Origin: a virus
Reading direction: 5' to 3' (one strand)
Length of the DNA stretch: 64,000 nucleotides
IMG/VR virus record: IMGVR_UViG_3300018080_005856
Span: 1 to 64,000 of that record
Below, one piece after another: positions 18,689 to 48,390 of this stretch (position 1 is the first letter of the stretch; every line of letters begins with the position of its first letter). Below the pieces are notes generated by a model that was not told the origin of the DNA, searched no databases, and saw only the letters and a list, made by a program, of their open reading frames with translations. Made by a program: the position numbers and the translations under genes.

Positions 18689-18770
18689 GGTGCATCCTCC
18701 TTAACGAGATTTGACCCATTCTGGGCCCAGAACCTGCATCCGTAATGGATGCATATTCTTCATTTATAGA

Positions 18771-18892
18771 GAAAAAGAGGGGCGCTAGGCCCCTTAGTAT
18801 GTGAGTAGGGAATGTTTGAGGGCGAGAGGAGGGTCCCCCGCCCCGTCTTTCGACGGTATTATCTCAACAACCTCGAGTAGGTTGTTTTAAGT
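18771..18892 (-). ncRNA. Candidate ~120-nt structured sRNA
   Basis: ORF-free unit between a motif copy (18893-18906) and a terminator. Hairpins AACAACCT/AGGTTGTT, CCGTC-GAAA-GACGG and GGGCG/CGCCC. Confidence 0.55.
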
Positions 18893-18912
18893 CATTTATA
18901 AAGAAAGCCTTG

Positions 18913-19359
18913 TTATTCTTTAGGTGATGGAGTCTTTCGTTTTAGCGGTGTGACGTTGTCGGGTAGAATCTCGTCGACTACCTCATCGTTTTCGGTTATC
19001 TCCACTTTTCCCATACCGAAGCTGATATTGTCAGAGTCACCATCCCCTGACGGTTTCTGCTTTATAGATCCATCTACTATTCCCTGTACTATCCTGGATG
19101 GTTGTGTAATTCGTGCATGGGCATCAACTTTAAGGCCAGGTGCCTGGGGAGTATCTGCCCCACATGGTCCTAGCTGTACCGGTAGTCCCATAAGGAACTT
19201 TATCTGGCCTATTAGTCTACCAGATTCTGCCTTAAGCACTAACTGTGAAGGATTACAGTCCTGCTGGCTGAGCCTGATGTTCAGGTCTTCCAGCAGAACT
19301 GCCATAGATTCAAGTATTGTTCTCTCAAACTGGGCTCTCAAGAAGTCGAGTGTTTCCAT
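18913..19359 (-). CDS. Hypothetical protein
   Basis: ORF with RBS. Confidence 0.65.
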   Translation of the reverse strand: METLDFLRAQFERTILESMAVLLEDLNIRLSQQDCNPSQLVLKAESGRLIGQIKFLMGLPVQLGPCGADTPQAPGLKVDAHARITQPSRIVQGIVDGSIKQKPSGDGDSDNISFGMGKVEITENDEVVDEILPDNVTPLKRKTPSPKE

Positions 19360-19496
19360 AATCCTATTCTCCGTCCTCCGAAGTATATTATGCCAACGGA
19401 TATGATAACCGGGGTAGGCAGTAGTAGGATTCCTCCTACAACCGCCATCCTTTTCCAGTTCTTCTTATCTCGCCACCATTTCATACATTATACCTT

Positions 19497-19832
19497 TTAT
19501 AGTGCTGATTCTGCAAGGAGCTTACCTTCATCGTCAACCCCTTTCTTGCTTACCCAGACACCATCAACTACAAGGTACCATTCGTTGGTTGAGTCATCAA
19601 TGAGCCAATACACTTCGTGATCCTGTGCCAGCTTGGCAAACTTGGTAAGAGATTTTGTCCTTCTGTCGATCTTCTTCAAATTCTGGCCCAGAACTTTGAA
19701 CTTGATACCCCTCCAGCTGAACTCCGCATTTACAATCTCGGATCTGTTCTCGCTGGCGACCTCTTTTGGTGAAGTAACAAATACCTCATTTGCGAGAGGA
19801 ATGATTTCCTCTTTTAACTCTGCTTTGTTCAT
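19497..19832 (-). CDS. Hypothetical protein
   Basis: GGAGG RBS and an upstream motif copy at 19855-19868. Confidence 0.7.
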   Translation of the reverse strand: MNKAELKEEIIPLANEVFVTSPKEVASENRSEIVNAEFSWRGIKFKVLGQNLKKIDRRTKSLTKFAKLAQDHEVYWLIDDSTNEWYLVVDGVWVSKKGVDDEGKLLAESAL

Positions 19833-19908
19833 GGTCTTCCTCCATATTAATATTCGTTTGTATGGAAAAGAGCATGATTCATGTGATTTGGATTTCTGTC
19901 GGTAGGTT

Positions 19909-20346
19909 TTATTCTTTTGGTTGGTTGACAGTACTTTCCTCTATGTCCTCTTCTCTCTCCGCCATTATTTCCACCATCATGAATGATGCCAGGTCTGCCT
20001 TTTCCCTCTCCTCCTTCATCCTTTTATCGTTCCACTTCGTAGCTGCAGCAATTGCCATATCTGTATCTATGAACGAGGAAAGAAGGTCTGTCACCGGAAG
20101 TTCTATGAACCCCCTGTAGATTGCTTCCATTGCAGTAAGAGCTATTGCTGGGGCCTGGCCTTTCTTTATTGAAAATACAAGGCTATTCATAAGGTGCTGG
20201 TCGTGCATGTCTTTTACAAATAGGCTTTCACCATCTTGTGTTCTCCACCTTACGCTTTTCCAGTCAGGTCCTCTCTTATCGATAATCCTCCTAATGTATT
20301 GTAGTTCGGTACCAGAAACTAACTGCTCGTACCTTACATTAGGCAT
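19909..20346 (-). CDS. Hypothetical protein
   Basis: ORF with RBS. WRTQDG...KDMHDQHLMN motif. Confidence 0.7.
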   Translation of the reverse strand: MPNVRYEQLVSGTELQYIRRIIDKRGPDWKSVRWRTQDGESLFVKDMHDQHLMNSLVFSIKKGQAPAIALTAMEAIYRGFIELPVTDLLSSFIDTDMAIAAATKWNDKRMKEEREKADLASFMMVEIMAEREEDIEESTVNQPKE

Positions 20347-20360
20347 GTCTTTTCTCCTTA

Positions 20361-20867
20361 CTACTCGTGGTCAAAAGTTTGATCACTAGTGCTGTTACTA
20401 GACGTGGAATATATTATATTACCACTGTCTATTTGGTCATATGGCCCGTGTGGAGCTATGACTGGGTATTCTATTACAGAACCAGGGTAACTTATTGCGG
20501 GTGCACCAGAGTCATCAAAGGTAGTCCTATCCCATGTCTGTGTTCCTACGCTGGTTGTACCATTTACAAGCAGATCAACCATTTTCTCGAGCTTGTCAAG
20601 TTTGTCCATAACATCTTTTAACCTCAGAATGTCAAATGGACTGGTTTCCATCACAGCAGCTGGACTATGTCCTACTTGTTTGAATGCCTTTGCCAGATCT
20701 TTCAGATCTGCCTTTGGGTTTCCAGATAGATGTCGGTAAAGGTCTAATACTGCTTTTTCGTTCATGTTACTCCCTCCCGGGTATAATATGAAATTATACC
20801 CTCCTGGGGATTTATATGCAAGCAATATTTTGGTGGGTTGTTTATGTGGCAAGACCTCTAATAGCAT
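20361..20867 (-). CDS. Hypothetical protein (true start probably near 20765)
   Basis: GGGAG RBS before MNEKAV. Confidence 0.55.
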   Translation of the reverse strand: MLLEVLPHKQPTKILLAYKSPGGYNFILYPGGSNMNEKAVLDLYRHLSGNPKADLKDLAKAFKQVGHSPAAVMETSPFDILRLKDVMDKLDKLEKMVDLLVNGTTSVGTQTWDRTTFDDSGAPAISYPGSVIEYPVIAPHGPYDQIDSGNIIYSTSSNSTSDQTFDHE

Positions 20868-21708
20868 CGAACACGTTTACGGATTCGAAATCTTTCTCTC
20901 CTCTCAGGAACGATACAGCTTTCTCGGCACGTGATGCTGCGTATATTATCAGGTTCTCATTTTCCTCCATAGCATTGCACCATCCGTTTATGACATGTAG
21001 AGCTGTATCCCCAATCCTATCTTCCCATGTCATATTATACGCTTTGAGAATCATGGCACTTCCTATTTCGGATATGAGTCTTTCCATCCCGAACCTATTT
21101 GTATCCTCAGGGTCCCTTCCCTTTATCCTATCTTTCCCTGACGTCCAACGTACTAATGCACTGGTGAGATCATAATAGTACTCGTTCACATCATCGAAGT
21201 CCTCTTTTGGGGGAGTAAAGATAGTATCTGTCTCTGGGTCGTACTTTGCTACAGTAAGGTTGTCTCTAACCTGGAAGTTTGCACCAGATCTAAATACAAA
21301 TTCATCTATGGGGATATCGGGAGTCATATCAAGAGGAGAAATATCCTGATCGAAATCTATTATATTATCTATTCCAATCACGTTATAGAATCTCAGGACT
21401 GGTATTTTCTGTACTTCTGGTTTACCGTTCACTATATTCCCGGTTTCCTTCTCATATATCTTCCAGAAAGTTATTATAGGTTTATTGCATCCGGCGTCGT
21501 ATACCTTCCCCAGGGACTTTATCTCCTTTCTTGTTAGATAAAACCTGTTGTCATCTCCAGACAAAAGCAGCTGGTTCAGAACACTATACGGTTTTCTTCT
21601 GTTAAAGTTGCACTTATCTAATCCAAACCTCTTTGACTTCCATACTAGAGTCTGTTCATTCCTCATTATCTCTATTATGGATCTTGTTACTATTTCACTT
21701 ACAGACAT
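20842..21708 (-). CDS. ArdC-like antirestriction/ssDNA-binding protein (DUF1738 plus zincin-like domain)
   Basis: PYSVLNQLLL, FYLTRKEI, IPVLRFYNV, YDPETDTI..P...F, ERLISEIGSA, IIYAASRAEKAV. Confidence 0.75.
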   Translation of the reverse strand: MSVSEIVTRSIIEIMRNEQTLVWKSKRFGLDKCNFNRRKPYSVLNQLLLSGDDNRFYLTRKEIKSLGKVYDAGCNKPIITFWKIYEKETGNIVNGKPEVQKIPVLRFYNVIGIDNIIDFDQDISPLDMTPDIPIDEFVFRSGANFQVRDNLTVAKYDPETDTIFTPPKEDFDDVNEYYYDLTSALVRWTSGKDRIKGRDPEDTNRFGMERLISEIGSAMILKAYNMTWEDRIGDTALHVINGWCNAMEENENLIIYAASRAEKAVSFLRGEKDFESVNVFDAIRGLAT

Positions 21709-21720
21709 GTTAACCTCCCG

Positions 21721-22113
21721 TTAACAGAACTCCTCTCCTATCATATGAGTAAATTGTATTGGACATCCGGCTAGAATTTCCTCAAACTTCTTTACAGAGA
21801 GTCGTCTTCCATACTCATCTCTGATTGGGCGCCATCTCCATTTTGATATATCCAATATGATCTGCTTATCTACTGCCCATGTGAATGAACAGCATAGTCT
21901 TATTCCATGCATATCGTTAGCTAAAAGTACTGTTTCTCCGAGCACGGGCTTGTGGCATATTGGACATTCGTCCCACCACTCTACGTTTGCACCATGGTGT
22001 ACCTTTTCCTGGCCCTCTTTACATAGAGTAATCTTGCAATCCCAGCAATATGGACCAGCCCCTGACCTCTTTCCTATGTGTGTTCCATCGTACGTATAGA
22101 AATTAGTTCCCAT
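21721..22113 (-). CDS. Hypothetical Cys-rich protein
   Basis: MGTNFY...HIGKRSG, two CxxC pairs. Confidence 0.7.
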   Translation of the reverse strand: MGTNFYTYDGTHIGKRSGAGPYCWDCKITLCKEGQEKVHHGANVEWWDECPICHKPVLGETVLLANDMHGIRLCCSFTWAVDKQIILDISKWRWRPIRDEYGRRLSVKKFEEILAGCPIQFTHMIGEEFC

Positions 22114-22140
22114 ACTATTACTCCTATGTTATTATTCTCA

Positions 22141-22545
22141 TTATGCTGAAGCGTGAAAGGGAGAGACAAATCTATTATTATGGTAATCTTCGTGAATGTG
22201 TCTAACATCGCGCCACAAGAACTGATCTTCTATGGCATTAGGATTACGTTTTCTGATGTACCATATATGACCTATATTAACTAATACCCTCTTCAGCGTC
22301 TTTACTCCCTTGGAATCCGTTTCTTCCACTGCTATAACTATATCAGGAGTTGGTACATCAACAACACCAATATCACATACTATCCCCTCTATGGATGTAA
22401 TCTGTTCATTATCCCTGCCATATCCATTTGGTATTATCCTCACAATAGCTTCCTCTTCAATGCATTTGGCTAGCATGTCTACATGATGTCTATACTTCAA
22501 TAGAAACATCATACCACATGTATCTGCTATCTGTTTGTATATCAT
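22141..22545 (-). CDS. Hypothetical protein, possibly Sm/Hfq-like (weakest member)
   Basis: AGGAG RBS at the 22545 ATG. SIEGIVCDI...VNIGHIWYI pattern. Confidence 0.4.
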   Translation of the reverse strand: MIYKQIADTCGMMFLLKYRHHVDMLAKCIEEEAIVRIIPNGYGRDNEQITSIEGIVCDIGVVDVPTPDIVIAVEETDSKGVKTLKRVLVNIGHIWYIRKRNPNAIEDQFLWRDVRHIHEDYHNNRFVSPFHASA

Positions 22546-22710
22546 GCACGTTTCTCCTGCTACCAGGAAATATGGAACCCCATGATTCCAGCTATTATGA
22601 GTATCCATCCTATTAGGAGAGCGGTATCTGAGTGAAATATGAGCAGTATTGCTATTCCTATGCACGTGAATAATCCGCCAGGTATATACACTTTCATGTC
22701 CCCTCCTTTA

Positions 22711-23226
22711 TCAGGCCCACGGGTCTGCCTCTTTCCTTCTCTTGCTGCCCGGGAATAGATCTATCATGCTGAGAACCTTCTCATGCATCACATCAAAAAG
22801 ATGGTCATAATGCCTATCCTGGAAAGTCTCCATGCTTGTCATAAGTCCTTTGTCTGTCCATACACATCGCTTAGGGGTGGCCGGCACTACGGGCATTTCC
22901 ACGCCCATATTGGACCCCACACTCTGGAATTCTTCTTTCTGCTTCTCAGCTTCATCTAGATCTTTCCAGTATTGTTTCCATTTCTTCTTCCATGATATTT
23001 CTATAAACTCATGATGGGGTAGGAGCTTCACATAATACCCACCGTCCTTATCACTTATATAGAACTCCATTCTCCTTGTGTCTGTAAACCCAAGAGCTAT
23101 AAGATCTGTCAGGGGGAGATCTTCTATTCCCGCTCCTCCCAGTTTTCGCATAAGATCGCTGGGGTGAGGAAGTTTCACCTCTTCTGGTTCTTGCCCCAGT
23201 ATGGGCAAGCTTTCTTCATTTATCAT
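22711..23226 (-). CDS. Hypothetical protein
   Basis: ORF in a co-oriented run. Confidence 0.7.
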   Translation of the reverse strand: MINEESLPILGQEPEEVKLPHPSDLMRKLGGAGIEDLPLTDLIALGFTDTRRMEFYISDKDGGYYVKLLPHHEFIEISWKKKWKQYWKDLDEAEKQKEEFQSVGSNMGVEMPVVPATPKRCVWTDKGLMTSMETFQDRHYDHLFDVMHEKVLSMIDLFPGSKRRKEADPWA

Positions 23227-23439
23227 GTTATAATTCCTTAGTAGAAAGAGTGTATCCCATGAGAGAAGGCACGAAGCGGTTCTCCCATGAGAATAGCGAA
23301 CATATTCTAAATGGAGGTACCCTATGGGCTTAACCAGTCTATCGATCAGGCTATTATCATAGGTGTCGATTATGTATATTTAGGAGATACCGCTGCCTTT
23401 ACCCGCACGGTATCCGGTAAACCGCATTGATTGTTGGAT

Positions 23440-23622
23440 CTAGCCTTTTCTGCCTGTCCCTGCCCCGCGGCCCCCGCCGCGACCGTAACCCGGGCCACCC
23501 CTGGAGCATCCCCCTGTATTTCTTCCGAGGCCACGTCCTGCTCCTCTTCCGATGCCTCTCCCAGTTCCTCTCCTGGTGCTGCCCTGTCTCCTTGGTCTTG
23601 GTGTGGTTGGCCTAGTTGCCAT
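23440..23622 (-). CDS. 60-aa Arg/Gly-rich basic protein
   Basis: AGGAG RBS. GRGIGRGAGRGLGR...GRGGGRG. Lies just downstream of the CAT tRNA. Confidence 0.6.
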   Translation of the reverse strand: MATRPTTPRPRRQGSTRRGTGRGIGRGAGRGLGRNTGGCSRGGPGYGRGGGRGAGTGRKG

Positions 23623-23645
23623 TTTGCAACTCCTATATTGATGAT

Positions 23646-23719
23646 TGGCAGGGGTGGGACTTGAACCCACGACCTCAAGATCATGAATCTTGCGTTCTAA
23701 CCAGCTGAACTACCCTGCT
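23646..23719 (-). tRNA. tRNA with CAT anticodon (Met or Ile2), no encoded CCA
   Basis: Cloverleaf AGCAGGG-TA-GTTC/GAAC-CAAGA TTCATGA TCTTG-GTGGG TTCAAGT CCCAC-CCCTGCC-A. Confidence 0.9.
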
Positions 23720-24263
23720 CTATATCATCTTCAACAGTTTCCAGACTGTTGCTGATGTTATCTATTATTATATCATGCACTACCATATTTACAAGCAAAC
23801 ATAATCCAAACACAATGCCCATAGCTATGGACAGCGTTTCTATACCACAATTATACAGCAAAATATATATAGCTATTTTACTCATATGATCAAGCAGTGA
23901 TCCTACAGACGGCTCCAAATGATACCATATGGCCACAAGTCCCGGGTATTCTGCTGCATGTTCTATTTTACCACTAGCCACAGGTAAAGCTTCCCTTGCC
24001 ATTACGTATGTTGCAAACACTATGATTATTAACGATACTACCTGTGCCGTTGCTACTATTGGTACAGCTATATGCGGTATTAGCCCTGATGGGATAAGTG
24101 ACAATAATACTATTTCTAGCACTCTTAGGAATAGCCCGTACACTGGAGTAAGGCCCACTACTGCTCTAGTTGATAGTTCATAGTGGTACTTATCAGCTAT
24201 TCTGACTAGGAAATCATCAGCTTCAGTGTCTAGCCTGTGAATCAGGAACTTTAATACTCGCAT
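23697..24263 (-). CDS. Membrane protein (paralogue of 24223-24822)
   Basis: About 4 TM segments. ILLYNCG motif. Confidence 0.65.
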   Translation of the reverse strand: MRVLKFLIHRLDTEADDFLVRIADKYHYELSTRAVVGLTPVYGLFLRVLEIVLLSLIPSGLIPHIAVPIVATAQVVSLIIIVFATYVMAREALPVASGKIEHAAEYPGLVAIWYHLEPSVGSLLDHMSKIAIYILLYNCGIETLSIAMGIVFGLCLLVNMVVHDIIIDNISNSLETVEDDIEQGSSAG

Positions 24264-24822
24264 TCTTTGCTTTCTCCATATATGTAGTAGTTTCCCTGTG
24301 TCTTATTATCATATCTATATTCCGTAAAGCGGTTTCTACATACACTAATGACACAAATACATTTACGATGTACATCAAAAGAAGGATGGTGCTTTCTACT
24401 GGGTACCCACACTCATGGAGCAGTATTATAGTTGCTAAGCCCATGAACAGTCTTACTACTCTCGGAACTGACACAGCCAATCTGCGTAGTGCAATAAACA
24501 TATTTCCACATCTAGTAGGATTGCTAATCGTATCTTCCACCAGGTCTGGAACATTTCTATACATAAATACAAGTGCAGTATATTCCATGGTAGTAGCAAC
24601 TAATACTATCCATAGCATAGTATGTATTACACTAGCTATCCAGTCAGGGTACCCCATAAACAGAACTCCAAGGAGGAGGAACACAGCAATTGCCGGTTCA
24701 GCCAGCATAAGGAGTCTTACAATAATCCCTCGTCTTATAACTATCTGAGCTCTATTATTCAGGATGTTGTCTCTATTTAGCCTTCCTAATGCAACTATCA
24801 CATCTGACTTAGTATGTAGCAT
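24223..24822 (-). CDS. Membrane protein
   Basis: About 4 TM segments. ILLHECG motif. RBS. Confidence 0.65.
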   Translation of the reverse strand: MLHTKSDVIVALGRLNRDNILNNRAQIVIRRGIIVRLLMLAEPAIAVFLLLGVLFMGYPDWIASVIHTMLWIVLVATTMEYTALVFMYRNVPDLVEDTISNPTRCGNMFIALRRLAVSVPRVVRLFMGLATIILLHECGYPVESTILLLMYIVNVFVSLVYVETALRNIDMIIRHRETTTYMEKAKNASIKVPDSQARH

Positions 24823-24829
24823 TACTACC

Positions 24830-25015
24830 TCACATGAATAGGACTACTGCCATAAGGGCCAGTCCTCCTATAATTATAACAGCATGCTCTATGTATCTGT
24901 TTCTATACATTGGACAGTCTCCATACCGGTTCATATAGAAGTTATTACTGACGTCGTATGTAGAATTATCTGTACCAAGAACACAGCTTTTAGTGCAATG
25001 TTTACATTTTCCCAT
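24830..25015 (-). CDS. Small Cys-rich protein with a C-terminal TM segment
   Basis: CKHC..C...C and a hydrophobic tail. Confidence 0.55.
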   Translation of the reverse strand: MGKCKHCTKSCVLGTDNSTYDVSNNFYMNRYGDCPMYRNRYIEHAVIIIGGLALMAVVLFM

Positions 25016-25445
25016 CTTCGCTCGTCTCCTCAGATATTATGTCTGATACCTTCAACTCGCCAGTTTTATCAACAGTCATCACTCTTACTGGTCCTCCTAT
25101 TTGTCCCAGTACGATAACGTCAGTACCATCTTTATCTGTAACTCCCATCTTGTCCAGCTCTTTTTCAACTGTATACATCCTGGGGGTTATCACTCGTTTC
25201 ACGACCATCCAGTTCTTTACTGGCCCCCATATGAATCTTTTCACCAGGGTATCAATAACTAGAGGTATCCATACGCCTTTATATACCCCCAATATAATGC
25301 ATGCTATCAGTACCATATCTGGAGCATATATTACGAGACTGGGTTTGTCCTCGTTGTTCATTACATCAGTATGATGGTAGGCGCTCATTAGAAGTGATAG
25401 GACACTCAACGTGCCCAGTATCACTATTATATAGATATTGTACAC
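25002..25445 (-). CDS. Membrane protein
   Basis: N-terminal TM segments. GAGGAGG RBS with GTG start. Confidence 0.65.
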   Translation of the reverse strand: MYNIYIIVILGTLSVLSLLMSAYHHTDVMNNEDKPSLVIYAPDMVLIACIILGVYKGVWIPLVIDTLVKRFIWGPVKNWMVVKRVITPRMYTVEKELDKMGVTDKDGTDVIVLGQIGGPVRVMTVDKTGELKVSDIISEETSEDGKM

Positions 25446-25732
25446 TAATCCTCCTCGTAGTTCTTAAGCTGAACATATTCAGATGCATCGTTGTTCCAGA
25501 CGTATACTGTACAACCGTAAGATCTCTTAAGAATCCATCCTATTTCCATACTATACCTTGTAGCTATAGTGTCATCCAGGTATATTGTTCTATGCATTAT
25601 CATGGGGCCTATCTGATTTATGCTCTCCTTCAGAGCCTGAACAAGTTCTCCTACATTGTAATCCAACTTCTCCATTCTGAGACCGACGGTGAGATCCCCA
25701 TCTTCGTTTCTTTCAAGGCTTATGAAGAACAT
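25445..25732 (-). CDS. Hypothetical protein
   Basis: ORF with RBS. Confidence 0.6.
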   Translation of the reverse strand: MFFISLERNEDGDLTVGLRMEKLDYNVGELVQALKESINQIGPMIMHRTIYLDDTIATRYSMEIGWILKRSYGCTVYVWNNDASEYVQLKNYEED

Positions 25733-25733
25733 G

Positions 25734-26006
25734 TTACTTTGCCTCCTTCAAGTGTGAGATAAAGAACCCGGTTAGCTTCATACATATTCTAGCTGCCGCC
25801 TTCTCTTTGCTCTCATCTGTGAACACGAGCTTATGCGAAGTGTAACCGTCCTGCATTCCCTCAATCTCATAATACAATTCATCGATTGCATCGTCTATAT
25901 CAAGTAGGAAATCTTGCATATCGGCCTCCGTAAAAGAGAGCAGGTGGGTGTTCCTGCTCTCTGACTGAACGAATGGTGTTACGCTCGGTCTTATAGTGTA
26001 ATCCAA
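25734..26006 (-). CDS. Hypothetical protein
   Basis: ORF downstream of a TGCTATAAT extended -10 element. Confidence 0.55.
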   Translation of the reverse strand: MDYTIRPSVTPFVQSESRNTHLLSFTEADMQDFLLDIDDAIDELYYEIEGMQDGYTSHKLVFTDESKEKAAARICMKLTGFFISHLKEAK

Positions 26007-26063
26007 GGGTATAGGAACACCCTGGGGATATTATAGCACGGAGGCTATAGGTAAGCAAAACAA

Positions 26064-26252
26064 CTATCGGATTTCTAGTTCTCGCATGTTGTCTGCCTTT
26101 TGTTTGTTTCTATTGTATGGAATGGCTTTCCAAAGTGGGCATTGAGATCCTGAATCGCTCGAAGTTCTCCCATCTTTGGCCAAGCAAATACCTCCTCCTA
26201 GTGGATCATTCTTCCATTTTAACCAATTCTGGCATCCTCCACATCTCTTCAT
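26064..26252 (-). CDS. Small Cys-rich protein
   Basis: CGGC...C...C. AGGAGG RBS. Confidence 0.6.
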   Translation of the reverse strand: MKRCGGCQNWLKWKNDPLGGGICLAKDGRTSSDSGSQCPLWKAIPYNRNKQKADNMRELEIR

Positions 26253-26272
26253 AGGTATGCCTCCTAGTTTGT

Positions 26273-26698
26273 TTATATGGAAATGATCATTGGTTTCTCA
26301 TCTTCCAAATTCTTGCCTCTTCTATTGACCAGGCTCTTTAACCTATCTGCAAATTCCTGGTCAACGTGGAATATGAACTTGTCTGGATCTACTTCGGTCT
26401 TATGATATGTGAACATATATGCTCTAAATGTGAACCCTCGCAGAGCCAGTACTTCTCCAGTTCTATACATATCACAAGGATCTTCCACTTCTAGCAAATC
26501 CTCATTGTATAGTGATTTCTGTTGGTCTATAACTACTAAGAAGACGTACTCATCTTTGCTTTCCCTCATTTTGTGATGTTCGCTACACACCATCCAGACA
26601 GGAATGTCAGGTCTACTAACATTTCCAACTAATTCCTTACCACATACTGCGCATACAGTCCCGTCAAGTTTCAAGTATCCCTCTTTGGCCATTCTCAA
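26273..26698 (-). CDS. Hypothetical protein with a CxxC...CxxH zinc motif
   Basis: CAVC...CSEH. Confidence 0.65.
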   Translation of the reverse strand: MRMAKEGYLKLDGTVCAVCGKELVGNVSRPDIPVWMVCSEHHKMRESKDEYVFLVVIDQQKSLYNEDLLEVEDPCDMYRTGEVLALRGFTFRAYMFTYHKTEVDPDKFIFHVDQEFADRLKSLVNRRGKNLEDEKPMIISI

Positions 26699-26769
26699 TT
26701 CCTCCCTACTTTAACTTTCATATGATGTACACATCCTCCATGTGTTTATTCCTAGTATTGTTTGGGTAG

Positions 26770-27093
26770 TTATTCTCCCCCAAACTTCATCAGGATAAAC
26801 CCGGCTACTGCTGTAAAGTATCCTATAAACTGCAGGTAGTTGAACCTGGAAGCATCCTTACTAAAGAATAGAAGGGCAACCAGAAACCCACCAGACATAC
26901 ATAGATCATATATAACGGCATCAGCAGTCATAGACTTAGTAAACTTTGACACTACTGCCCAACCAGGGAATAGTCCTGAAACTACTATTAACCAGAACCA
27001 TGTACCAGACTCTGAGTTCTGGTTCTTTACGGACAACCATGCATAAAGCATATAGAATGCGATTACAATAGGGACCCATATAAAGTATGCCAA
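26770..27093 (-). CDS. Small 4-TM membrane protein (SMR/EamA-like size)
   Basis: Four hydrophobic segments. Confidence 0.6.
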   Translation of the reverse strand: MAYFIWVPIVIAFYMLYAWLSVKNQNSESGTWFWLIVVSGLFPGWAVVSKFTKSMTADAVIYDLCMSGGFLVALLFFSKDASRFNYLQFIGYFTAVAGFILMKFGGE

Positions 27094-27104
27094 ATGCTAT
27101 TCTC

Positions 27105-27320: not shown

Positions 27321-27323
27321 TAT

Positions 27324-28316: not shown

Positions 28317-28342
28317 GACTATATGTATGGAAAGCCTTGTTC

Positions 28343-29568: not shown

Positions 29569-29608
29569 GACAGTACCTCCATAATATATTATTCATATAT
29601 ATGGAAAA

Positions 29609-37038: not shown

Positions 37039-37085
37039 ATGATATTCCTCCTTTATTGTAATTTGTAGGTATAGAAACGAATAAA

Positions 37086-39742: not shown

Positions 39743-39797
39743 GACGAGTTGAATTGTGATGACTTGAACTGCTTCAAATCGTGACGCGAGGACCCGG
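39743..39797 (-). repeat. Eleven-unit 5-nt-period array (NCR-NN), candidate guide RNA
   Basis: CCG GG/TCC TC/GCG TC/ACG AT/TTG AA/GCA GT/TCA AG/TCA TC/ACA AT/TCA AC/TCG TC. C at position 2 in 10 of 11 units and a purine at position 3 in 10 of 11. Confidence 0.75.
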
Positions 39798-39815
39798 CAA
39801 CTATTATTCATAGTT

Positions 39816-39829
39816 CATATATATGGAAA
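39816..39829 (-). promoter_or_regulatory. Phage motif copy TTTCCATATATATG driving the periodic RNA
   Basis: Perfect consensus copy abutting the stop codon of the Cas7-like gene. Confidence 0.7.
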
Positions 39830-40471: not shown

Positions 40472-40554
40472 GAGTGTCCTCCTTTCTATATTTTCAGGAA
40501 TATGGAAACTACAGATTGGGACATTGGGTTCCAGACCTTGGAAAGAAAGGGGAC

Positions 40555-40749
40555 CTAGTCCCCCTTGGTGTTGTCTTTCCTGACCTGACATAGCAAGTAT
40601 CTCTTTGCTATTGCCATGTTCATTTGATAACGGATGGCCCATGATTGAATATCCATAGCCGGCCGTTCAATTGATTTCTCATAATCAACTAGATCCGTTC
40701 CAAACATGGTCAGTGATTTAATGATATCTACTCTACCTGTCTTTGACAT
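40555..40749 (-). CDS. Hypothetical protein
   Basis: ORF followed by a terminator hairpin. Confidence 0.5.
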   Translation of the reverse strand: MSKTGRVDIIKSLTMFGTDLVDYEKSIERPAMDIQSWAIRYQMNMAIAKRYLLCQVRKDNTKGD

Positions 40750-40752
40750 AAT

Positions 40753-41172
40753 CTATTCTCCGGCTTCTGCCTCCTTTAGCGCGCAGTTGATGCACACCAT
40801 GCGGCCGTCCCTATGCCTCTGAATCCTGAGGCTCTTTGGGGTGTTACTCCAGTATTCTCCACATACATCGCATTTCTCCATATCTGTAGCCCCAAGTTCG
40901 CCTTCCCTTTGATTCATGGCATCTGGGTCAGTTTTCTGGCAGCCACAGTTTTCGCATACCATGTACTCGTCTTCCAGCAACCACCCACAACGACACTCCC
41001 ACATAGGTATCAGGCATTCAGCATAACCAGTTTCCGCTTTTGACTGCCTCTCTTTCTTCCATTTGGAACACACTTCAAGAGCATCTTCCAAGTCGTAGAA
41101 TTCTCCCTTGTGCCATATATTAGAGGTAATGCCGTCTTTGTGATAGCCTATTGATACTACTTTGTACTTCAT
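40753..41172 (-). CDS. Zinc-finger protein
   Basis: WECRCG...CENC, CDVC...CINC. Confidence 0.65.
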   Translation of the reverse strand: MKYKVVSIGYHKDGITSNIWHKGEFYDLEDALEVCSKWKKERQSKAETGYAECLIPMWECRCGWLLEDEYMVCENCGCQKTDPDAMNQREGELGATDMEKCDVCGEYWSNTPKSLRIQRHRDGRMVCINCALKEAEAGE

Positions 41173-41184
41173 TTAGGAACCTCC

Positions 41185-41376
41185 TTACTGTTCAAATGGG
41201 TTGTACTGCAGCAAACACCAATCTAGCCGTAGTTCTCTTCTCTTTCGCTTCTTCTTCTTCCATGGGAGCTTCTTTGATTCTTCCCATTCTCTGAAGATGC
41301 GTTCTTTCATAGATGCTTTGGCTTCTGCAAGGTCACATAGAGTTTGCGACATTATTTGCAAATAAGTTCTCCTCAT
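41185..41376 (-). CDS. Small basic hypothetical protein
   Basis: ORF with RBS. Confidence 0.55.
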   Translation of the reverse strand: MRRTYLQIMSQTLCDLAEAKASMKERIFREWEESKKLPWKKKKRKRRELRLDWCLLQYNPFEQ

Positions 41377-41423
41377 AGTTTCTATTCCTCCTTTATATAG
41401 TCTATTCTATGGAATTGCTCCAC

Positions 41424-41669
41424 CTATAGTCCTTGTGGCATTGGCATCCAGCCAGCAACATCTTCGCATGCTATATATGCTGGAATGAATCCATCATCAA
41501 AGTATAATGCGTTCTTAAGCTGATCTCTATAGCATGTGCCACCAAATTCCTGGTCATCTTTGGACAGATAACCAACGGTGACCCGGTTGCGTGTCCTATT
41601 GGGATAGACCAGTGACAGTATAATTGTCTTACCCTCTATAGGGTCCCTATCCGTAATCCAGTCATTCAT
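41424..41669 (-). CDS. DUF551-like protein
   Basis: MNDWI..RDP...VAGWMPMP. Confidence 0.65.
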   Translation of the reverse strand: MNDWITDRDPIEGKTIILSLVYPNRTRNRVTVGYLSKDDQEFGGTCYRDQLKNALYFDDGFIPAYIACEDVAGWMPMPQGL

Positions 41670-41670
41670 G

Positions 41671-41991
41671 TCATGACCTCCTCTCTTTCATTTCGAGCCT
41701 CTCGAGTCTCTCGTTCTCAAGCATATCCACCATTCTTCTATAGGCCTCATCTAGCATCTCTATGTGATCCATCGGGTAGCCGGTCCAAGTCATCATCTCT
41801 GCTACTATTTGACCAAACCATTTTACCAAACCGCCCATACTTGAGAGATCGCGCCCGGCCATGTCTAGTGGGCTACCTTGCACTTTTGTGCTGTTGACAA
41901 CCCCGATTAGATCCTCGAGGAAGCTAGCCTTGTTAGCTAATTCCCTAATGACATTACTCATGTCCTCGATCAGTTCGTCTTTTATTACCAT
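41671..41991 (-). CDS. Hypothetical protein
   Basis: AGGAGG RBS. Confidence 0.65.
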   Translation of the reverse strand: MVIKDELIEDMSNVIRELANKASFLEDLIGVVNSTKVQGSPLDMAGRDLSSMGGLVKWFGQIVAEMMTWTGYPMDHIEMLDEAYRRMVDMLENERLERLEMKERRS

Positions 41992-42009
41992 TGTTCGTCC
42001 TCCTTACTA

Positions 42010-42375
42010 TTATATGTTACTATTAGCATAGAAGATAATAGTGTTAGGTTTATCCAAGGATTCTGCCAGATCTAGTGAGTGCTTTGTTCCTCTGCTTTCT
42101 CCATCCCAGAATGCCAGAACCATGTCACAATGATCCACTATGAGCTTATTCCTCTTGTATCCCGCTGATTTGCCGTACTTGTTCCACTCAGCTCTGAATA
42201 CTGTCAAGGGTATATTGTTCTCATTCGCATATCTTGCTCCCAGGGAATCAGCTCCCCTGGCACCGCCAGATACTATTTCCTCTATTTCGTGACCGTTTCT
42301 TATGAGCTCTTCAACACTCTGCTTGAGTAATTCATAGTCGTCGAATTCTCTTGATCCTATTATTGCTAGTATCAT
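42010..42375 (-). CDS. DUF2493/YspA-like SLOG-family protein
   Basis: IIGSR.F.DY, IVSGGARGAD, AEWNKYGKSAG.KRN, FWDGESRGT. Confidence 0.9.
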   Translation of the reverse strand: MILAIIGSREFDDYELLKQSVEELIRNGHEIEEIVSGGARGADSLGARYANENNIPLTVFRAEWNKYGKSAGYKRNKLIVDHCDMVLAFWDGESRGTKHSLDLAESLDKPNTIIFYANSNI

Positions 42376-42499
42376 GTTACATCCTCCTTAAGTTATATTC
42401 ATATATATAGAAAGGCGAATCTTAAGCCATGTGTTCCAGAGTACCAGTAAAAGAAGCGGGCGTTAGCCCGCGGTTGTTTCTCACTATGATGACCTATTG

Positions 42500-42781
42500 C
42501 TACTCGGGGTAGCTGTTGTCGCCCTCGGCTTCAGCTTCCTCGGGTTGCTCTTTATTAGCTTCAGCAACAGAGCCACTTACCTTCTCAAGATACTCCTTTG
42601 CAGGTATTGTGACTTCATAGGTCGGAAGTATGATGGTCGTCCTCATGATGTCTTCACCGGTTGACTTGTTCTTATAGTCACCCTTACGCTCTCTGAACTC
42701 ACATTTCTTGAGAACTTCCTCATCAAATAAGCCCATCTTCTTTAGCTGAACGAATTGGCCTCTAGTAATCGTACATTGCAT
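42500..42781 (-). CDS. Hypothetical protein with an acidic tail
   Basis: Own motif copy (42844), RBS and terminator. Confidence 0.65.
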   Translation of the reverse strand: MQCTITRGQFVQLKKMGLFDEEVLKKCEFRERKGDYKNKSTGEDIMRTTIILPTYEVTIPAKEYLEKVSGSVAEANKEQPEEAEAEGDNSYPE

Positions 42782-42857
42782 GACGATACCCTCCTGTTTG
42801 TGATTCGCGAATCAAGAATGATTCACGCGAGATATTTCTATCTCATATGTATGGAAA

Positions 42858-42940
42858 GGAAAGGGCCTTTCGGCCCTTAGGGATCATAGCGTTTATCAAA
42901 CAAGGGATGACCCCTTATCAATCATCATACTAGGAGATAC
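42858..42940 (-). ncRNA. Candidate ~80-nt sRNA
   Basis: ORF-free unit from motif copy 42941-42954 to the terminator AAGGGCC-GAAA-GGCCCTT. Confidence 0.5.
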
Positions 42941-42951
42941 CATAAATATGG

Positions 42952-43104
42952 AAAAAGAGAGCTGGCCTGCTCTCTTAATCCGTGCGTGTTATAGTATTGG
43001 CTTTGTTCCTGCGGTCAGCCTACCCAGCAGTTGAGCAGTTACAGGAACTATAAGTGCTCACCACCGGCTCCTCTGGATCCGCGAAATCCTTCGGGATAAC
43101 ACAC
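42952..43104 (-). ncRNA. Candidate ~150-nt structured RNA with pseudoknot
   Basis: TGGTATAAT at 43111-43119. Stems GTGTGTTAT/ATAACACGC and GTTCCTG/CAGGAAC, with TGAGCA/TGCTCA crossing them. Terminator at 42955-42976. Confidence 0.55.
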
Positions 43105-43139
43105 CTCTGTATTATACCACGAGTAAGGAATCGAAGAAA

Positions 43140-43340
43140 CTATCCTCCGGCTCCATGCTTACAAAGACAGTCCTTAGACACACACTTACCTGTGTGATCA
43201 ACCTGACATGGGCCGCAGCCTTCACATATAACTACGGCATACATGCCTTTCCTGGTATCCTCTTCTGATGATAAACCGGATAGATCGCCTAGATCTTCAC
43301 CAAAGTGATCTATACTGCACTGCTTACAGAAATCAGCCAT
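43140..43340 (-). CDS. Small Cys-rich phage protein
   Basis: MADFCKQCS...ICEGCG...VDH.G.C...C...H. Confidence 0.7.
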   Translation of the reverse strand: MADFCKQCSIDHFGEDLGDLSGLSSEEDTRKGMYAVVICEGCGPCQVDHTGKCVSKDCLCKHGAGG

Positions 43341-43398
43341 AGCTATTCCTCCTGTATTATAGTCACAGTTATGGAAAAGATGAGAGCCAGAGGCTCTC

Positions 43399-43677
43399 TT
43401 ATCCGAGATGTATGGGTCTGTTCTTCATATAGATATAGGCAACAAGTCCAGCTACGGCTACACATCCGAATCCTGTGAGGAACAGGTACAGAATAGTAAG
43501 CCATATGCTTCCAGTTCCTATCAAGAACAGAACTATTGAGCCTGTAGCCATGGCCCCTACTATCCATAGTTTCTTATCGTAGATATTCGGGTTGTTTCTC
43601 TTTACATTCACTGAGAATGCCCACCAGCTTACTACGATAGAAGCCACATAAACCAGAACGGCTAGAAATGTAATCAT
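43399..43677 (-). CDS. Small membrane protein
   Basis: 3 TM segments. GGAGGAGG RBS. Confidence 0.65.
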   Translation of the reverse strand: MITFLAVLVYVASIVVSWWAFSVNVKRNNPNIYDKKLWIVGAMATGSIVLFLIGTGSIWLTILYLFLTGFGCVAVAGLVAYIYMKNRPIHLG

Positions 43678-43722
43678 GATAACACCTCCTCCATCTATTC
43701 TATCAGTAAGGAAAGAAGGGGA

Positions 43723-43923
43723 CTACTCGTCCCCGAAGATGTTGTCCTGGCATTTCTGGCACAACCCTGATATTTCGTACTCTTTCCGAGATAGATCATC
43801 TCTGAAGCTATTCGGATTAGGGAGTACTACTTGATGGCAAATAGGACATCTACGTGACTCTATGTCCTTCTTTGCCTCAGGGAATACCTTGAATACGGGT
43901 TTGTTAAGATCTGGTTTATTCAT
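43723..43923 (-). CDS. Small zinc-finger phage protein
   Basis: CPIC...FRDDLSRKEY.ISGLCQKCQD..F. Confidence 0.7.
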   Translation of the reverse strand: MNKPDLNKPVFKVFPEAKKDIESRRCPICHQVVLPNPNSFRDDLSRKEYEISGLCQKCQDNIFGDE

Positions 43924-43984
43924 GTCTAAACAGCCTCCAGACTAACCATATTATGAATATTACTATCAACAATTCCATGACTGG

Positions 43985-44640
43985 CCTCCTTATCATAAGT
44001 ATGAAATTTATCCCCCTTTCCTGTATCCGGGGTACCATTGTCCCTTCAGACTCGCGCCCCTCTTGAGGAAGCTTAATAATAACAGAGCGCACCATTCCAG
44101 ACATCTGCGAGCGAACGGCGCCAGCCGGCCGGAGATGCACAGCTATGCCTGTCATTCTACCGTGCGTCATTCAAGAGATGGAATTAAGCCTCGCGAGGGA
44201 CTAAAGAGAAATACTCTGACGGCTACTCGTCAATAGTCTAATAAGGGATTATCGCCCGGGAAAATAGCCCTGTAACCCAGTACATTTCCCTATGGCTCCG
44301 GCTATTGCTCGGTCACTCTCCCCCTCAAGGGGGCCGGACGCCTCTTACAATCCTATTTCTCAGCTGTTTTCATGTACATCCCTCTCCTGTACATGAATGC
44401 TGTCGACACTTCCATAAATCCTCCGGGGAAAGGGTAATCACCCCCAGATATCCAGTATAAATACTGATATATCCAGGGACGGGGGAGGAAATCCCCCGGA
44501 CCCCCTCTATTCCTAGCCAATCAAGATCCTGAACCGGTAAAATATATAGATCGGGTATGAGCCGATCCATATATCTGTCACAGAAGCGTCAGCCACACCC
44601 CTGCCGGTCGGCCCCACCAATGGCTGAAATGGGAAGGCCC
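43985..44640 (-). ncRNA. Candidate large (~650-nt) structured RNA
   Basis: Starts at motif copy 44641-44654. GC-rich with many long stems and no ORF with an RBS. Confidence 0.6.
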
Positions 44641-44671
44641 CATTTGTATGGAAAAGAAGAGGCCGTAGCCT

Positions 44672-44938
44672 CTATTCATTGCTAGTTGATATGACTATTC
44701 GCCCTTCATCATCAAACTCGTTGTTGTGTTCGTATGGGTTATACCCCATCCTCTTTAAATCATGTAAGGCGGCACGGCAGGATTTTATCTCGCCGTTGCA
44801 ACTAAAGACGATAAGTATGGTGATATGGTCACCAGTATGCTCGTCCACCGCGCAGAGGTCAACGTTAGTATGGACGGACTTCTCCAGCACTATACACCAG
44901 TGCTTGTTTTCTTTATGTTTTCCTTCAAACATTCTCAT
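44672..44938 (-). CDS. Hypothetical protein
   Basis: RBS, structured leader, motif copy at 45028, terminator. Confidence 0.65.
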   Translation of the reverse strand: MRMFEGKHKENKHWCIVLEKSVHTNVDLCAVDEHTGDHITILIVFSCNGEIKSCRAALHDLKRMGYNPYEHNNEFDDEGRIVISTSNE

Positions 44939-45058
44939 CTCTATTTCCTCCTTGTTTTATCATAGCCAATTTGGGGGGTCTACCAAAGCAGAACACCCCC
45001 AAAGTAAGCTATTATGATCAACGTCCTCATAAATATAGAAAAGAAGAGGCCGTAGCCT

Positions 45059-45334
45059 CTATACTCGCCAGGTTCTTATATCATTGACGGCCTTACTAAT
45101 ATCAACGTGTTGAGCCAGAATATCTCGGGCTACGTCTATCTTTCCCTGTCTGTAGGCCTCGTACCATATGGCCTGAGTAAGCTCAGATATTGCTTTTATA
45201 TCCTCATCTTTTACATCCTTTCCCATATGTACTACCTTATCCAGGAACTGGAAAGCGCATCTGTGGATTTGAACTCGGTGCAGCTCACTATCCTCTGAAA
45301 ACGTTACTTCACATAGAACTAAAGAATCGTCCAT
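45059..45334 (-). CDS. Hypothetical protein
   Basis: Start moved to MDDSLV (AGGAGGT RBS). Motif copy at 45379. Confidence 0.65.
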   Translation of the reverse strand: MDDSLVLCEVTFSEDSELHRVQIHRCAFQFLDKVVHMGKDVKDEDIKAISELTQAIWYEAYRQGKIDVARDILAQHVDISKAVNDIRTWRV

Positions 45335-45408
45335 GTATATTACCTCCTTTAATGTAGTTGACTTATGATCAATGTCCTCGTAAATATGGAAAAGAGGGCT
45401 ATTAACCC

Positions 45409-45846
45409 TCAGTGTGAGCATGGTGCCCCTGTAGCAAGGCGCGCCTCAGCGTCAGCGGGGTTCTCACCCGCATTTACATGGACAAACTCTATTTCTATTT
45501 GGTCCTTCACACGAGTTATCCACTCCTGGTACTCTTTTGTGGCCGGTTTCTTAGCCTTCCAAGAGCCATTCGCCCAAGCAGATACACCTTCGTAGTAGTG
45601 TTTAATGACTACTTTCTCGTACCCCTTGGAATGAGCATATCTGACAGCCTCTATGGCTGCCTTGATTTCGCCCCCTACGTTCCTCATAGAGACAATATCG
45701 TCCCTAACTAAGGCGCCATGGGCTTTATACCCATCAGAAGCCACTATCCCCCAACCCACAAGGGTTGGATTATTAATAGTAAACGAGCCGTCAGTATAAA
45801 CCTCTATAGTTCTCACAACATCACCTCCAATACAGATATATAACAA
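45409..45846 (-). CDS. rnhA: Ribonuclease HI (true start probably the GTG near 45817)
   Basis: VYTDGS, RNVGGEIKAA, Y.GV..WA.G.WKA, F.HV.A..N..AD..A. The second catalytic Asp position appears as H/Y (IKHYYEG). Confidence 0.8.
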   Translation of the reverse strand: MLYICIGGDVVRTIEVYTDGSFTINNPTLVGWGIVASDGYKAHGALVRDDIVSMRNVGGEIKAAIEAVRYAHSKGYEKVVIKHYYEGVSAWANGSWKAKKPATKEYQEWITRVKDQIEIEFVHVNAGENPADAEARLATGAPCSH

Positions 45847-46248
45847 ATCTCATATATATAGAAACACGCTATATTACCTCTTTTATTACCTTTACATACT
45901 GAGATATTACCCTCACTACATACATCTCATTGCCCTTACATACAATATGGGGGTGCGTCCCTCTATACAGTACTCCCCTTCTATGCCATTACAATACCTA
46001 TACCGGGTACAATACAATACAATACTAGATACAATACCAGGTACATGAACTTGACAGGGCTAGGACGCTCATTATTTATATACTGAGCTATTATTTGTGA
46101 CCTGACTTATGCAGGTCATTATATGGGTTTAAGACCCATATTATTGGCAAAACTGTCAGATTCTTGACAGTAATTTGCTTATGGGTTCCCCTCCCTAAAG
46201 GGCACCCTCCCCATGTGTTCCTTATGTGTTTTTATGTTAAAAGGGGGC

Positions 46249-46584
46249 CTAGTGGCCCCAGATCTTATGGTCTTGATACTTCCATATAGGCAGTGATATG
46301 CTATATACTAGGGCGCCTAGCACCGCAGTATTTCTACAGTAGTACCAGAGACACTTCAATATGGCCGGATAGCCGTAATAATACGCTACCAGGGTCCATA
46401 TTCCGAATATGAAGGAACAGGTATATGCCAGCATAGCTAGCGTTTCACTTTCCCTCCATGTTGCCATTCCTATCAGGAATAGCACCGCAGTTATAATATG
46501 TAACCCATACGCTACAGATAGGACACTTCCGTATTCTGTAGACTGACTCAGTATGGGCCTTCCCTCTATAATGAACCAATCCAC
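46249..46584 (-). CDS. Membrane protein
   Basis: 3 TM segments. GGAGG RBS with GTG start. Confidence 0.65.
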   Translation of the reverse strand: MDWFIIEGRPILSQSTEYGSVLSVAYGLHIITAVLFLIGMATWRESETLAMLAYTCSFIFGIWTLVAYYYGYPAILKCLWYYCRNTAVLGALVYSISLPIWKYQDHKIWGH

Positions 46585-46764
46585 GATTACCTCCAGTAAG
46601 TATGATTATATTGTACTTTCTTGCTGTTATGGGCTGTCACAGCAAGGAGACGAGGGGGTAGCCTAAGTACATAGGCATCCAGATTCCGAGTCAGGTACTG
46701 GCTAAACGACAGTCCTGATTCTCACCCATGGGTATGGAAACGTAAAGGGGAGGGCCTTAGCCCT

Positions 46765-46944
46765 CTATTCTAATGTGGTTACGATCTCTTTTACCAACTC
46801 CATTCCCTCTTTCCCATACTCTATGAGTTTAGGGAGTTCATCTCCGGAGATCTCATATTTGAGATCTACTTTGGCGCCTGACAGGCTGAACTTCTCGTCC
46901 GGGACTTCAAGGGACTTTACTTCGAATGTCATTTGCATGATCAT
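46765..46944 (-). CDS. 59-aa hypothetical protein (not in the ORF track)
   Basis: MIMQMTFEVKSLEV..., AGGAG RBS, motif copy at 46985, terminator. Confidence 0.6.
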   Translation of the reverse strand: MIMQMTFEVKSLEVPDEKFSLSGAKVDLKYEISGDELPKLIEYGKEGMELVKEIVTTLE

Positions 46945-47035
46945 GATATATACTCCTGTTAGTATGATTTGGGACTCTATATCCCACTATTATGGAAAGA
47001 TGAGGGCCTATTAAGCCCTCTATGTTTACTCGGTT

Positions 47036-47308
47036 TTAACCCTCTCTGACGGTAGCTGTCTGCCGGGACAATTTCTCCATCTTTACGAGGGCTTTCTGCT
47101 CTTTCCTGTATGCGTTTACAGCATTAAGCAGGTGCTGCCTGCAGACGTGGCAGGACATGATATGATCGATTGTTTCGATGTTATCATGAATGAGCTTCTC
47201 GCTCTTCTCTGCATTGTTACAGGTATTATGTTCGACCCACTTCTTCTCCAGTTTGTGAGAAGTGTTTGCGAGTCCTGTTACGGCGTTAGTTACTATGTTC
47301 TTAAACAT
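47036..47308 (-). CDS. Hypothetical protein
   Basis: AGGAGGT RBS, motif copy at 47333, H...C..C. Confidence 0.65.
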   Translation of the reverse strand: MFKNIVTNAVTGLANTSHKLEKKWVEHNTCNNAEKSEKLIHDNIETIDHIMSCHVCRQHLLNAVNAYRKEQKALVKMEKLSRQTATVREG

Positions 47309-47344
47309 AGTGGTACCTCCTTAGGTAATATTCATGAGTATGGA

Positions 47345-47472
47345 AAAGAGAGGCGAGCCGGTGCAATATCCTGCGTGCCCTCGTTAACTTTCAGATGTTT
47401 CGGGAGTAACCCTATCAACTGTTGGTATGGAGTGACGCATTCCCTTTCCCCGTTGGGACACCGTGATCCTCT
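47345..47472 (-). ncRNA. Candidate ~125-nt sRNA
   Basis: ORF-free unit between two motif copies. Its ends pair (GAGG..CGGTGT / GCACCG..CCTC-TTTT). Confidence 0.5.
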
Positions 47473-47495
47473 CATTTATATGGAAAGAGAAGGGG

Positions 47496-47684
47496 CTATG
47501 CCCCTAGGATTGACATTCCTGTGTATTTCCCTTTCTCCAGGGTTTCTACCACCGCTTTCTTTATAAGATCAGTAGGCCTGCCAAGGATAACACCCAGAAA
47601 CAGAACGAAGTCTGCCTCTTTCTTGTTTACCTCTGGGGCACCAGATTCTCTGATCTTCCGCTTCCAAATTGACATTGATATCAT
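47496..47684 (-). CDS. Hypothetical protein
   Basis: GAGGAGGT RBS. Confidence 0.55.
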   Translation of the reverse strand: MISMSIWKRKIRESGAPEVNKKEADFVLFLGVILGRPTDLIKKAVVETLEKGKYTGMSILGA

Positions 47685-47896
47685 CTCAGTACCTCCTCAA
47701 TATTGATATGAATCCCGGCTTCCTCAAAACGTCTTACTGTCTCGAGGTTATCTATGAACCCGGGTAACTCTCTCTTTACCTGCTGTAGCATGCGGGTGAG
47801 CTTTTGCCTCGCTACAACATTCCTACGAATCTTATCAATATCAGAGTCATTAAGGCCCTGTATAAAGCGTATAGCTTTAATCATATCTATTTTCAT
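47681..47896 (-). CDS. Hypothetical protein
   Basis: AGGAGG RBS and motif copy at 47944. Confidence 0.6.
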   Translation of the reverse strand: MKIDMIKAIRFIQGLNDSDIDKIRRNVVARQKLTRMLQQVKRELPGFIDNLETVRRFEEAGIHINIEEVLR

Positions 47897-47954
47897 GATA
47901 TTGCCTCCTTTGCACCGCCCACTATTCTAGAGGTGGGACAATGCATATATATGG

Positions 47955-48390
47955 AAAAGGAAGGCCGTGCACAGCCTCCCATACGGGATACATGGATTAC
48001 AGTTGGGCTAGGCACCTCGTCATTTCAGACTGTCTATTTACGCTCAGAGTGGACCATCTCTTCATCACGCACGTGACCGTCTTCTTGGTACCATTCCCAC
48101 GCTTATCTCCAGGGGATCCAGACCTGAAGATTATAGCTTCACCCAAGGACTTATCCGATTGTATGAAGCAGGTAGGGCGCCCCCTGAACGAATCCAGAGA
48201 ACGCCCTTTCAGTGGGTTTCACAGAAGAATACAACGGGGTATTAGGAAGGATTAAATATAATACCGCTAGTATGGAACCCCAAACAGAACCCCGGTAATA
48301 TAGTAATAACCCCCTATAAAGGGAAGGGTAGCCTCTTACCGCCGTTAATCCTCCCTGTAATGCGCATGGTAACGACCTTAAGTTGTTACA
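47955..48390 (-). ncRNA. Candidate ~430-nt structured RNA
   Basis: Long stems with minus-strand G-U pairs. Ends in a terminator. Confidence 0.6.

Follow-up and report, generated by a model that had tools for sequence, protein, structure and literature searches.

Single-chain two-barrel RNA polymerases (RNAPs), among them YonO of SPbeta, gp64 of Thermus phage P23-45 and related enzymes, are believed to be similar to the ancestor of the cellular RNA polymerases, and very little is known about the way in which they locate promoters. YonO has a single known start site and an undefined promoter sequence (Forrest et al. 2017, PMC5467207). In P23-45 a tape-measure-fused virion RNAP (gp96) is served by 14 AT-rich promoters, strongly conserved and confined to 9 kb, a region that includes the gp64 gene, the host RNAP serves later genes, and gp64, a non-virion enzyme, has a weaker GC-rich motif (Chaban et al. 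2024, PMC10770324). In T4-type phages the so-called PeSLs are composite terminator/promoter cassettes (Arbiol et al. 2010, PMC2839356; Comeau et al. 2014, PMC4122927). Here we describe a repeated element in the first 64 kb (the window) of a 150,487-bp linear virus contig of IMG/VR (IMGVR_UViG_3300018080_005856), estimated to be 79% complete and derived from an uncultured marine phage. The element, TTTCCATA-yay-ATG-R-R, is 16 nucleotides (nt) long and recurs on the minus strand beyond the gene of P0001, a protein which by its predicted fold is itself a single-chain two-barrel RNAP. We put at about even the chance that the copies are promoters read by P0001, with starts at the conserved G.

Minus-strand genes occupy the window between about 53 and 5 kb, and the motif-bearing part runs from 48 to 18.7 kb. 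An earlier note on this DNA, made from the letters alone, had listed about 21 strand-specific copies of TTTCYATA-N4-YG, and such a series is indeed there: the search pattern TTTCYATANNNNYG matches the window 19 times, in 18 cases on the minus strand, where 0.64 matches are expected and no shuffle gave more than 3. Sixteen of the 21 coordinates listed are exact matches, whereas those at 18761, 18893, 28320 and 43701, together with one called possible at 26270, are variants with one to three mismatches. The exact match at 22089, absent from that list, lies 10 nt inside an open reading frame (ORF) and is probably due to chance. A position weight matrix (PWM) built from 17 exact sites and scanned over the whole contig confines all 17 of the sites scoring at least 17 to the minus-strand interval 19855–47957, with 14 of these within 39.8–48 kb, and the tail genes and plus-strand blocks, in which no copies had been noticed, hold no high-scoring copy. 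The best scores elsewhere, 16.1 (4870–4883, minus) and 16.0 (genome position 100630, plus), both fall within ORFs and reflect either chance or internal or antisense starts. For a pattern-blind repeat finder, too, the motif is the region's dominant repeat family (D1–D4). Ten motif positions are invariant by construction, the sites having been picked with the pattern, and the positions which the pattern leaves free are constrained as well: in the 17 sites G is never found at positions 9, 10 or 11, A occupies position 12 in 14, and purines follow at position 15 (16 of 17) and position 16 (15 of 17).

No conserved position is found beyond the 16 nt and so the motif has no −35 or −10 partner, in keeping with the non-sigma-70 promoter proposed earlier. 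At 13 of 23 sites a GC-rich hairpin of 6–9 pairs ends 0–9 nt before the motif and the pyrimidine run after its stem continues into the motif's TTTC, just as would be expected from the earlier suggestion that the T-run of a preceding terminator is reused; terminator-like sites (GC-rich hairpin plus T-run, predicted terminators only) number 25 in 39–54 kb where 10.6 are expected. The other ten sites have no hairpin and keep the TTTC along with all 16 positions, and so the motif is autonomous and TTTC is part of it, not a mere U-tract. The copies are intergenic and their placement is promoter-like, also as had been claimed, in that nine sites end 18–27 nt before a start codon preceded by GGAGG. 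Other copies head stretches of 87–140 nt which lack a convincing ORF and end at the next terminator, and of five such units folded three exceed shuffled sequences in stability (z between −2.1 and −3.0). The small ORFs of the block have no Pfam matches. Overall this layout reads as a row of independent transcription units, each with a putative promoter, a short leader or small RNA, and a predicted terminator.

The likeness to PeSLs is evident, since there too an early promoter adjoins a stem-loop terminator, in composites that border small genes of unknown function within a plastic region. The PeSL promoter is, however, an early promoter for host sigma-70, whereas the present motif is not sigma-70-like and would probably be read by a phage enzyme.

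P0001, the candidate reader, has no match in Pfam or PHROG and no close relatives in IMG/VR contigs, GTDB genomes or GenBank phages. Its family comprises only 23 representatives among 1.8 billion proteins, and the family alignment, used as a profile, found nothing meaningful in PDB or Pfam. Invariant in the family are R208/K211/D212, R496/P498 and the aspartates of D536-x-D538-D539. An AlphaFold2 (AF2) model from 22 sequences reached a confidence score (pLDDT) of 91.2, where an input of six sequences had given 49.8, and Foldseek aligned it with QDE-1 (1e-10) and with the non-virion polymerases of two Thermus phages, P74-26 gp62 (6e-9) and P23-45 gp64 (8e-9; 8f72), with further matches to plant RDR2, crAss-like gp66 and P23-45 gp96. 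On the strength of these structural matches to the model P0001 is a single-chain two-barrel RNA polymerase of the QDE-1 and P23-45 gp64 kind and not of the T7 type. The earlier assignment of an RNA polymerase to 49014–51458 thus holds by fold; the enzyme is not a classical T7-type phage RNAP, as PF00940 is not matched and the fold is two-barrel. A six-frame search of the contig found no T7-like RNAP, in a search whose control also gave no match.

Against the known systems the locus compares as follows. With P23-45 it shares a gp64-like single-chain two-barrel RNAP and possibly a further RNAP encoded in the tail module, a short motif without sigma-70 character that keeps to one strand and clusters in an early region of small genes, and sigma-70-like signals in other modules; it differs in the sequence of the motif, in a polymerase gene which does not lie behind the motif, in the fusion to ordinary hairpin terminators, in a DxDD loop instead of DxDxD in P0001, and in that the motif is known here from sequence alone, rather than from mapped transcription start sites or chromatin immunoprecipitation. 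YonO is likewise a single-chain two-barrel phage RNAP of about 800–840 amino acids (aa), but here some 20 candidate sites yield a consensus from which starts are predicted. In the T7 group, too, the polymerase gene ends the first operon and is followed by compact same-strand promoters ending in a G start and by hairpin and U-run terminators; P0001 is nonetheless unrelated to T7 RNAP, and the motif has 16 conserved positions against 23.

Six readable metagenome contigs (L001, L002/L009, L003, L007 and L008; 3–10 kb each) carry a polymerase homologue 35–50% identical to P0001, and on them the co-occurrence of motif and polymerase which the earlier note had put forward as a check is borne out by an analogous series downstream of the homologue in five contigs, which at this length leave room for other readers. 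The design, seen wherever a contig extends downstream of the polymerase gene, consists on the polymerase strand of a hairpin, a T-run and a short word ending in G, 10–40 nt before a ribosome-binding site. The series starts one to three genes past the polymerase gene, with no copies before it, and this order of polymerase gene and then motif series, kept in all relatives, argues for P0001 as the reader. The word itself varies, being TTTTTATACTNAYGG in L003 (four copies), TTTTTATAC-N3-CGA in L001 (three to five copies), TTTCTTATACTCACGG in L007 and CCCTTATTTTTGG in L008 (ten copies), with TTTTTGG-type copies in L002/L009; those of L003, L007 and L001 are plainly homologous to the window motif. 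L008 has in addition a second word, ACCTTTATG, with seven same-strand copies (716–1386), all in an AT-rich stretch ahead of the polymerase operon and none elsewhere; two copies sit inside GTACC-TTTAT-GGTAC palindromes. This word is a candidate second promoter class, so that two classes of signal flank the gene, and the upstream one cannot depend on a polymerase not yet made.

The sequence of events that we favour would begin with the polymerase operon, which contains no copy of the motif, being transcribed by the host RNAP or by an injected virion RNAP. P0001 would then initiate on or beside the invariant G (motif position 14) at some 20–24 same-strand sites, which would yield short mRNAs whose leaders measure about 24 nt, as well as several small structured RNAs without ORFs. 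The majority of units would end in a GC-rich hairpin and T-run overlapping the TTTC of the next promoter, and through this overlap terminator and promoter would form self-contained cassettes. Across the whole contig the motif, the ribosome-binding site and a −10-like TATAAT are the only intergenic words or k-mers repeated, with no second phage-specific motif, and so without the motif P0001 has no visible regulon. That P0001 recognises the 16-bp duplex alone, without a sigma-like partner, is in our view somewhat less likely than not.

Several points weigh against promoters for P0001. In P23-45 the strongly conserved, clustered promoters belong to the virion enzyme, whereas gp64, the P0001-like enzyme, has the weak GC-rich motif, and the tail module of the present contig encodes a second candidate RNAP, a 2121-aa protein (genome 110367–116732) with a DxDxD. 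A 288-aa protein encoded within the motif block (20842–21708, minus) has ArdC N-terminal and zincin-like metallopeptidase domains of the anti-restriction type, and immediate expression would be expected of such a gene rather than expression after a new polymerase has been made. The motif type does not match the polymerase tree cleanly, with the TTTTTGG type in two separate branches, and for this reason co-variation is not claimed. Among sequencing runs the stretch is found in sediment and seawater DNA metagenomes only, and in no RNA run.

Some of these points would be accommodated if the motif were instead the promoter for the 2121-aa protein, injected with the DNA, and the block a pre-early host-takeover region on the model of P23-45 gp96 or of the N4 or phiKZ virion polymerases, a reading we consider unlikely. 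The ArdC-like gene would be at home in such a region, and 14 motif copies in 8 kb compare well with the 14 promoters of the P23-45 virion RNAP in 9 kb of small genes (PMC10770324). The protein is free of cysteine, its DxDxD (1390–1394, within SxDxDxDP at 1388–1395) is invariant among three known relatives, and its best profile alignments, non-significant as they are, fall on conserved motifs of beta and beta'. That it is an RNAP could not be confirmed, however, there being no Pfam match and an hhalign probability below 1%, with no significant alignment of the family to E. coli beta or beta', and ESM Atlas gave nothing informative; relatives are absent from IMG/VR, and the two in the protein collection lie only on structural-module contigs. 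The protein adjoins a 2105-aa neighbour. Moreover the polymerase operon is without the motif, unlike gp64 in P23-45, a tail enzyme as reader leaves P0001 without a visible promoter set, and the separate motif class which L008 has upstream of its polymerase operon would suit a pre-early enzyme better.

That the motif acts on RNA is improbable, be it as a cleavage or 3'-end-forming signal beside a protective hairpin, cutting a long transcript into single-gene messages, or as the extended part of a polymerase-specific terminator. Such a role would fit the more than half of the copies that touch a hairpin, the conserved 26-nt terminator motif of P23-45 (PMC10770324) and the apparent RNA-processing elements, tRNA-like pieces, of the neighbouring polymerase operon. 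It sits poorly with the ten hairpin-less copies that retain all 16 positions, and the constant 18–27 nt to start codons, with conservation through the G and into the purines, is what start sites typically show; the sites of known endoribonucleases are also far shorter or less specific. Promoters for the host RNAP carrying an alternative or phage-made specificity factor, after the manner of the T4 gp55 late promoter TATAAATA, seem to us very improbable. Some copies (18761, 18893, 47473) do contain TATAAATG, and in a contig about 79% complete a factor gene could be missing. Yet sigma-70 regions 2 and 4 were not found in the contig, no −35/−10 pair stands at a workable spacing, a −10 reading, including an extended −10 in the AT-rich leader, puts the start within the ribosome-binding site, and the motif is conserved through the presumed +1, which is unusual in sigma-dependent promoters. 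Sigma-70-like sites are not enriched in 39–54 kb (29 found, 30.2 expected); they were seen by eye ahead of several other modules, without statistical enrichment. A Bacteroidota-type −7 reading (TAnnTTTG) was ruled out by the strong GGAGG sites and the wrong spacing.

The suggestion that the composites act as recombination points finds one good example, not a rule, in natural variation. When contigs from four other runs were aligned to 38–53.5 kb, low-depth contigs in three runs joined 46758 to 47014, and 46759–47013 is missing from them, a loss of exactly one unit of promoter, 59-aa ORF and terminator. The joint falls within ATAGAGGGCT, a 10-nt word common to the 5' arms of two terminators, with 8–10 shared letters, and this indel would thus have its breakpoints in the repeated composite, as is described for PeSLs. 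A second joint, 40872–42096, was set aside as unreliable. Variant positions in the other runs miss the motifs, the variants being too few for this to be meaningful.

Neither terminator-promoter cassettes nor phage-specific promoters for two-barrel RNAPs of phages are new as kinds; new are the consensus, its proposed pairing with a small unannotated family of polymerases with a DxDD loop, and the fusion to terminators of a putative promoter that is not of sigma-70 type. If P0001 recognises the duplex by itself, this would be the first high-information promoter consensus for a single-chain two-barrel RNAP of the QDE-1/YonO/gp64 type, and the terminator fusion would allow cassettes to be gained and lost through recombination as PeSLs are in T4-type phages. 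The one exact cassette loss would then extend PeSL modular gene shuffling to the regulon of a phage polymerase. With YonO's promoter undefined and the gp64 motif weak, a compact enzyme together with about 20 natural promoter variants and the lineage-specific versions of its relatives would offer a direct in vitro test of factor-independent recognition, and possibly an orthogonal transcription system. The finding makes a little-known enzyme family testable and is not a new principle. The positions of the sites are collected in Table 1.

Table 1. Polymerase gene, operon-head element and motif sites in the window, with PWM scores, hairpins and surroundings.
Feature	Position	Strand	PWM score	Hairpin	Surroundings
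P0001, 814 aa, candidate reader of the motif	49014..51458	-			predicted single-chain two-barrel RNA polymerase, DxDD loop
Single-copy element AGTCAAG-N9-CCTATAGG	52878..52904	-			head of polymerase operon; distinct from the motif
Motif copy	47944..47957	-	23.6	47980-47959, ends 1 nt before	first copy past the polymerase operon
Motif copy	47473..47486	-	23.5	47505-47491, upstream	heads ~125-nt unit without convincing ORF
Motif copy	47333..47346	-	24.2		25 nt before ATG 47308
Motif copy	46985..46998	-		47020-47002, upstream	cassette 46759-47013 missing in some natural variants
Motif copy	46727..46740	-	21.9	46765-46750, ends 9 nt upstream	
Motif copy	45851..45864	-	22.2	none	35 nt before start 45816
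Motif copy	45379..45392	-	24.2	45410-45394	
Motif copy	45028..45041	-	24.0	45060-45045, identical to that preceding the 44641 copy	
Motif copy	44641..44654	-	24.2	44673-44658	followed by structured leader or RNA, z = -3.0
Variant TTTCCTTACTGATA	43701..43714	-		43734-43718	24 nt before ATG 43677
Motif copy	43364..43377	-	18.3	43398-43382	24 nt before ATG 43340
Motif copy	42941..42954	-	20.6	directly upstream	heads ~87-nt ORF-free unit ending at next terminator
Motif copy	42844..42857	-	25.9 (top)	3 nt upstream	
Motif copy	42400..42413	-	23.3	none adjacent	25 nt before ATG 42375
Motif copy	40495..40508	-	18.3	none	24 nt before ATG 40471
Motif copy	39816..39829	-	23.2	none	heads ~140-nt structured ORF-free unit, z = -2.5
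Intergenic variant TTTCTATACCTACA, not listed earlier	37064..37077	-	12.4		27 nt before ATG 37037
Motif copy	29594..29607	-	23.4	none	26 nt before start 29568
Variant TTTCCATACATATA	28320..28333	-	12.3		
Variant TTTCCATATAAACA	26270..26283	-	11.5		18 nt before start codon
Motif copy	19855..19868	-	22.4	none	23 nt before ATG 19832
Weak variant TTTCTTTATAAATG	18893..18906	-	10.9		
Variant TTTCTCTATAAATG	18761..18774	-	15.1	3 nt upstream	

The element at the head of the polymerase operon, AGTCAAG-N9-CCTATAGG, is conserved in L003 (991–1014) and partly in L001 (1514–1525) and ends like a T7-type promoter (TATAGG). It may serve as promoter for the first operon or belong to the 5' portion of a structured RNA, and it is a candidate for the signal used by whichever enzyme first transcribes the polymerase gene. 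Between the genes of the same operon lie the tRNA-like pieces, made up of a T-arm and acceptor (GGTTCGA.YCCCGGG), at about 51690–51725 and 52795–52830 (minus), and the same pieces occur in L001 (5070–5110) and L003 (about 1700–1745); none of the pieces is called as a tRNA by ARAGORN, and a role in RNA processing is possible. From the end of this operon to the first motif copy some 480 nt (47958–48440) are without a convincing minus-strand ORF. Within the motif block one cassette contains a 260-nt patch, 45442–45703, that differs by about 13% in the variants of other runs, between flanks identical over kilobases, which points to local replacement or diversifying selection in that cassette.

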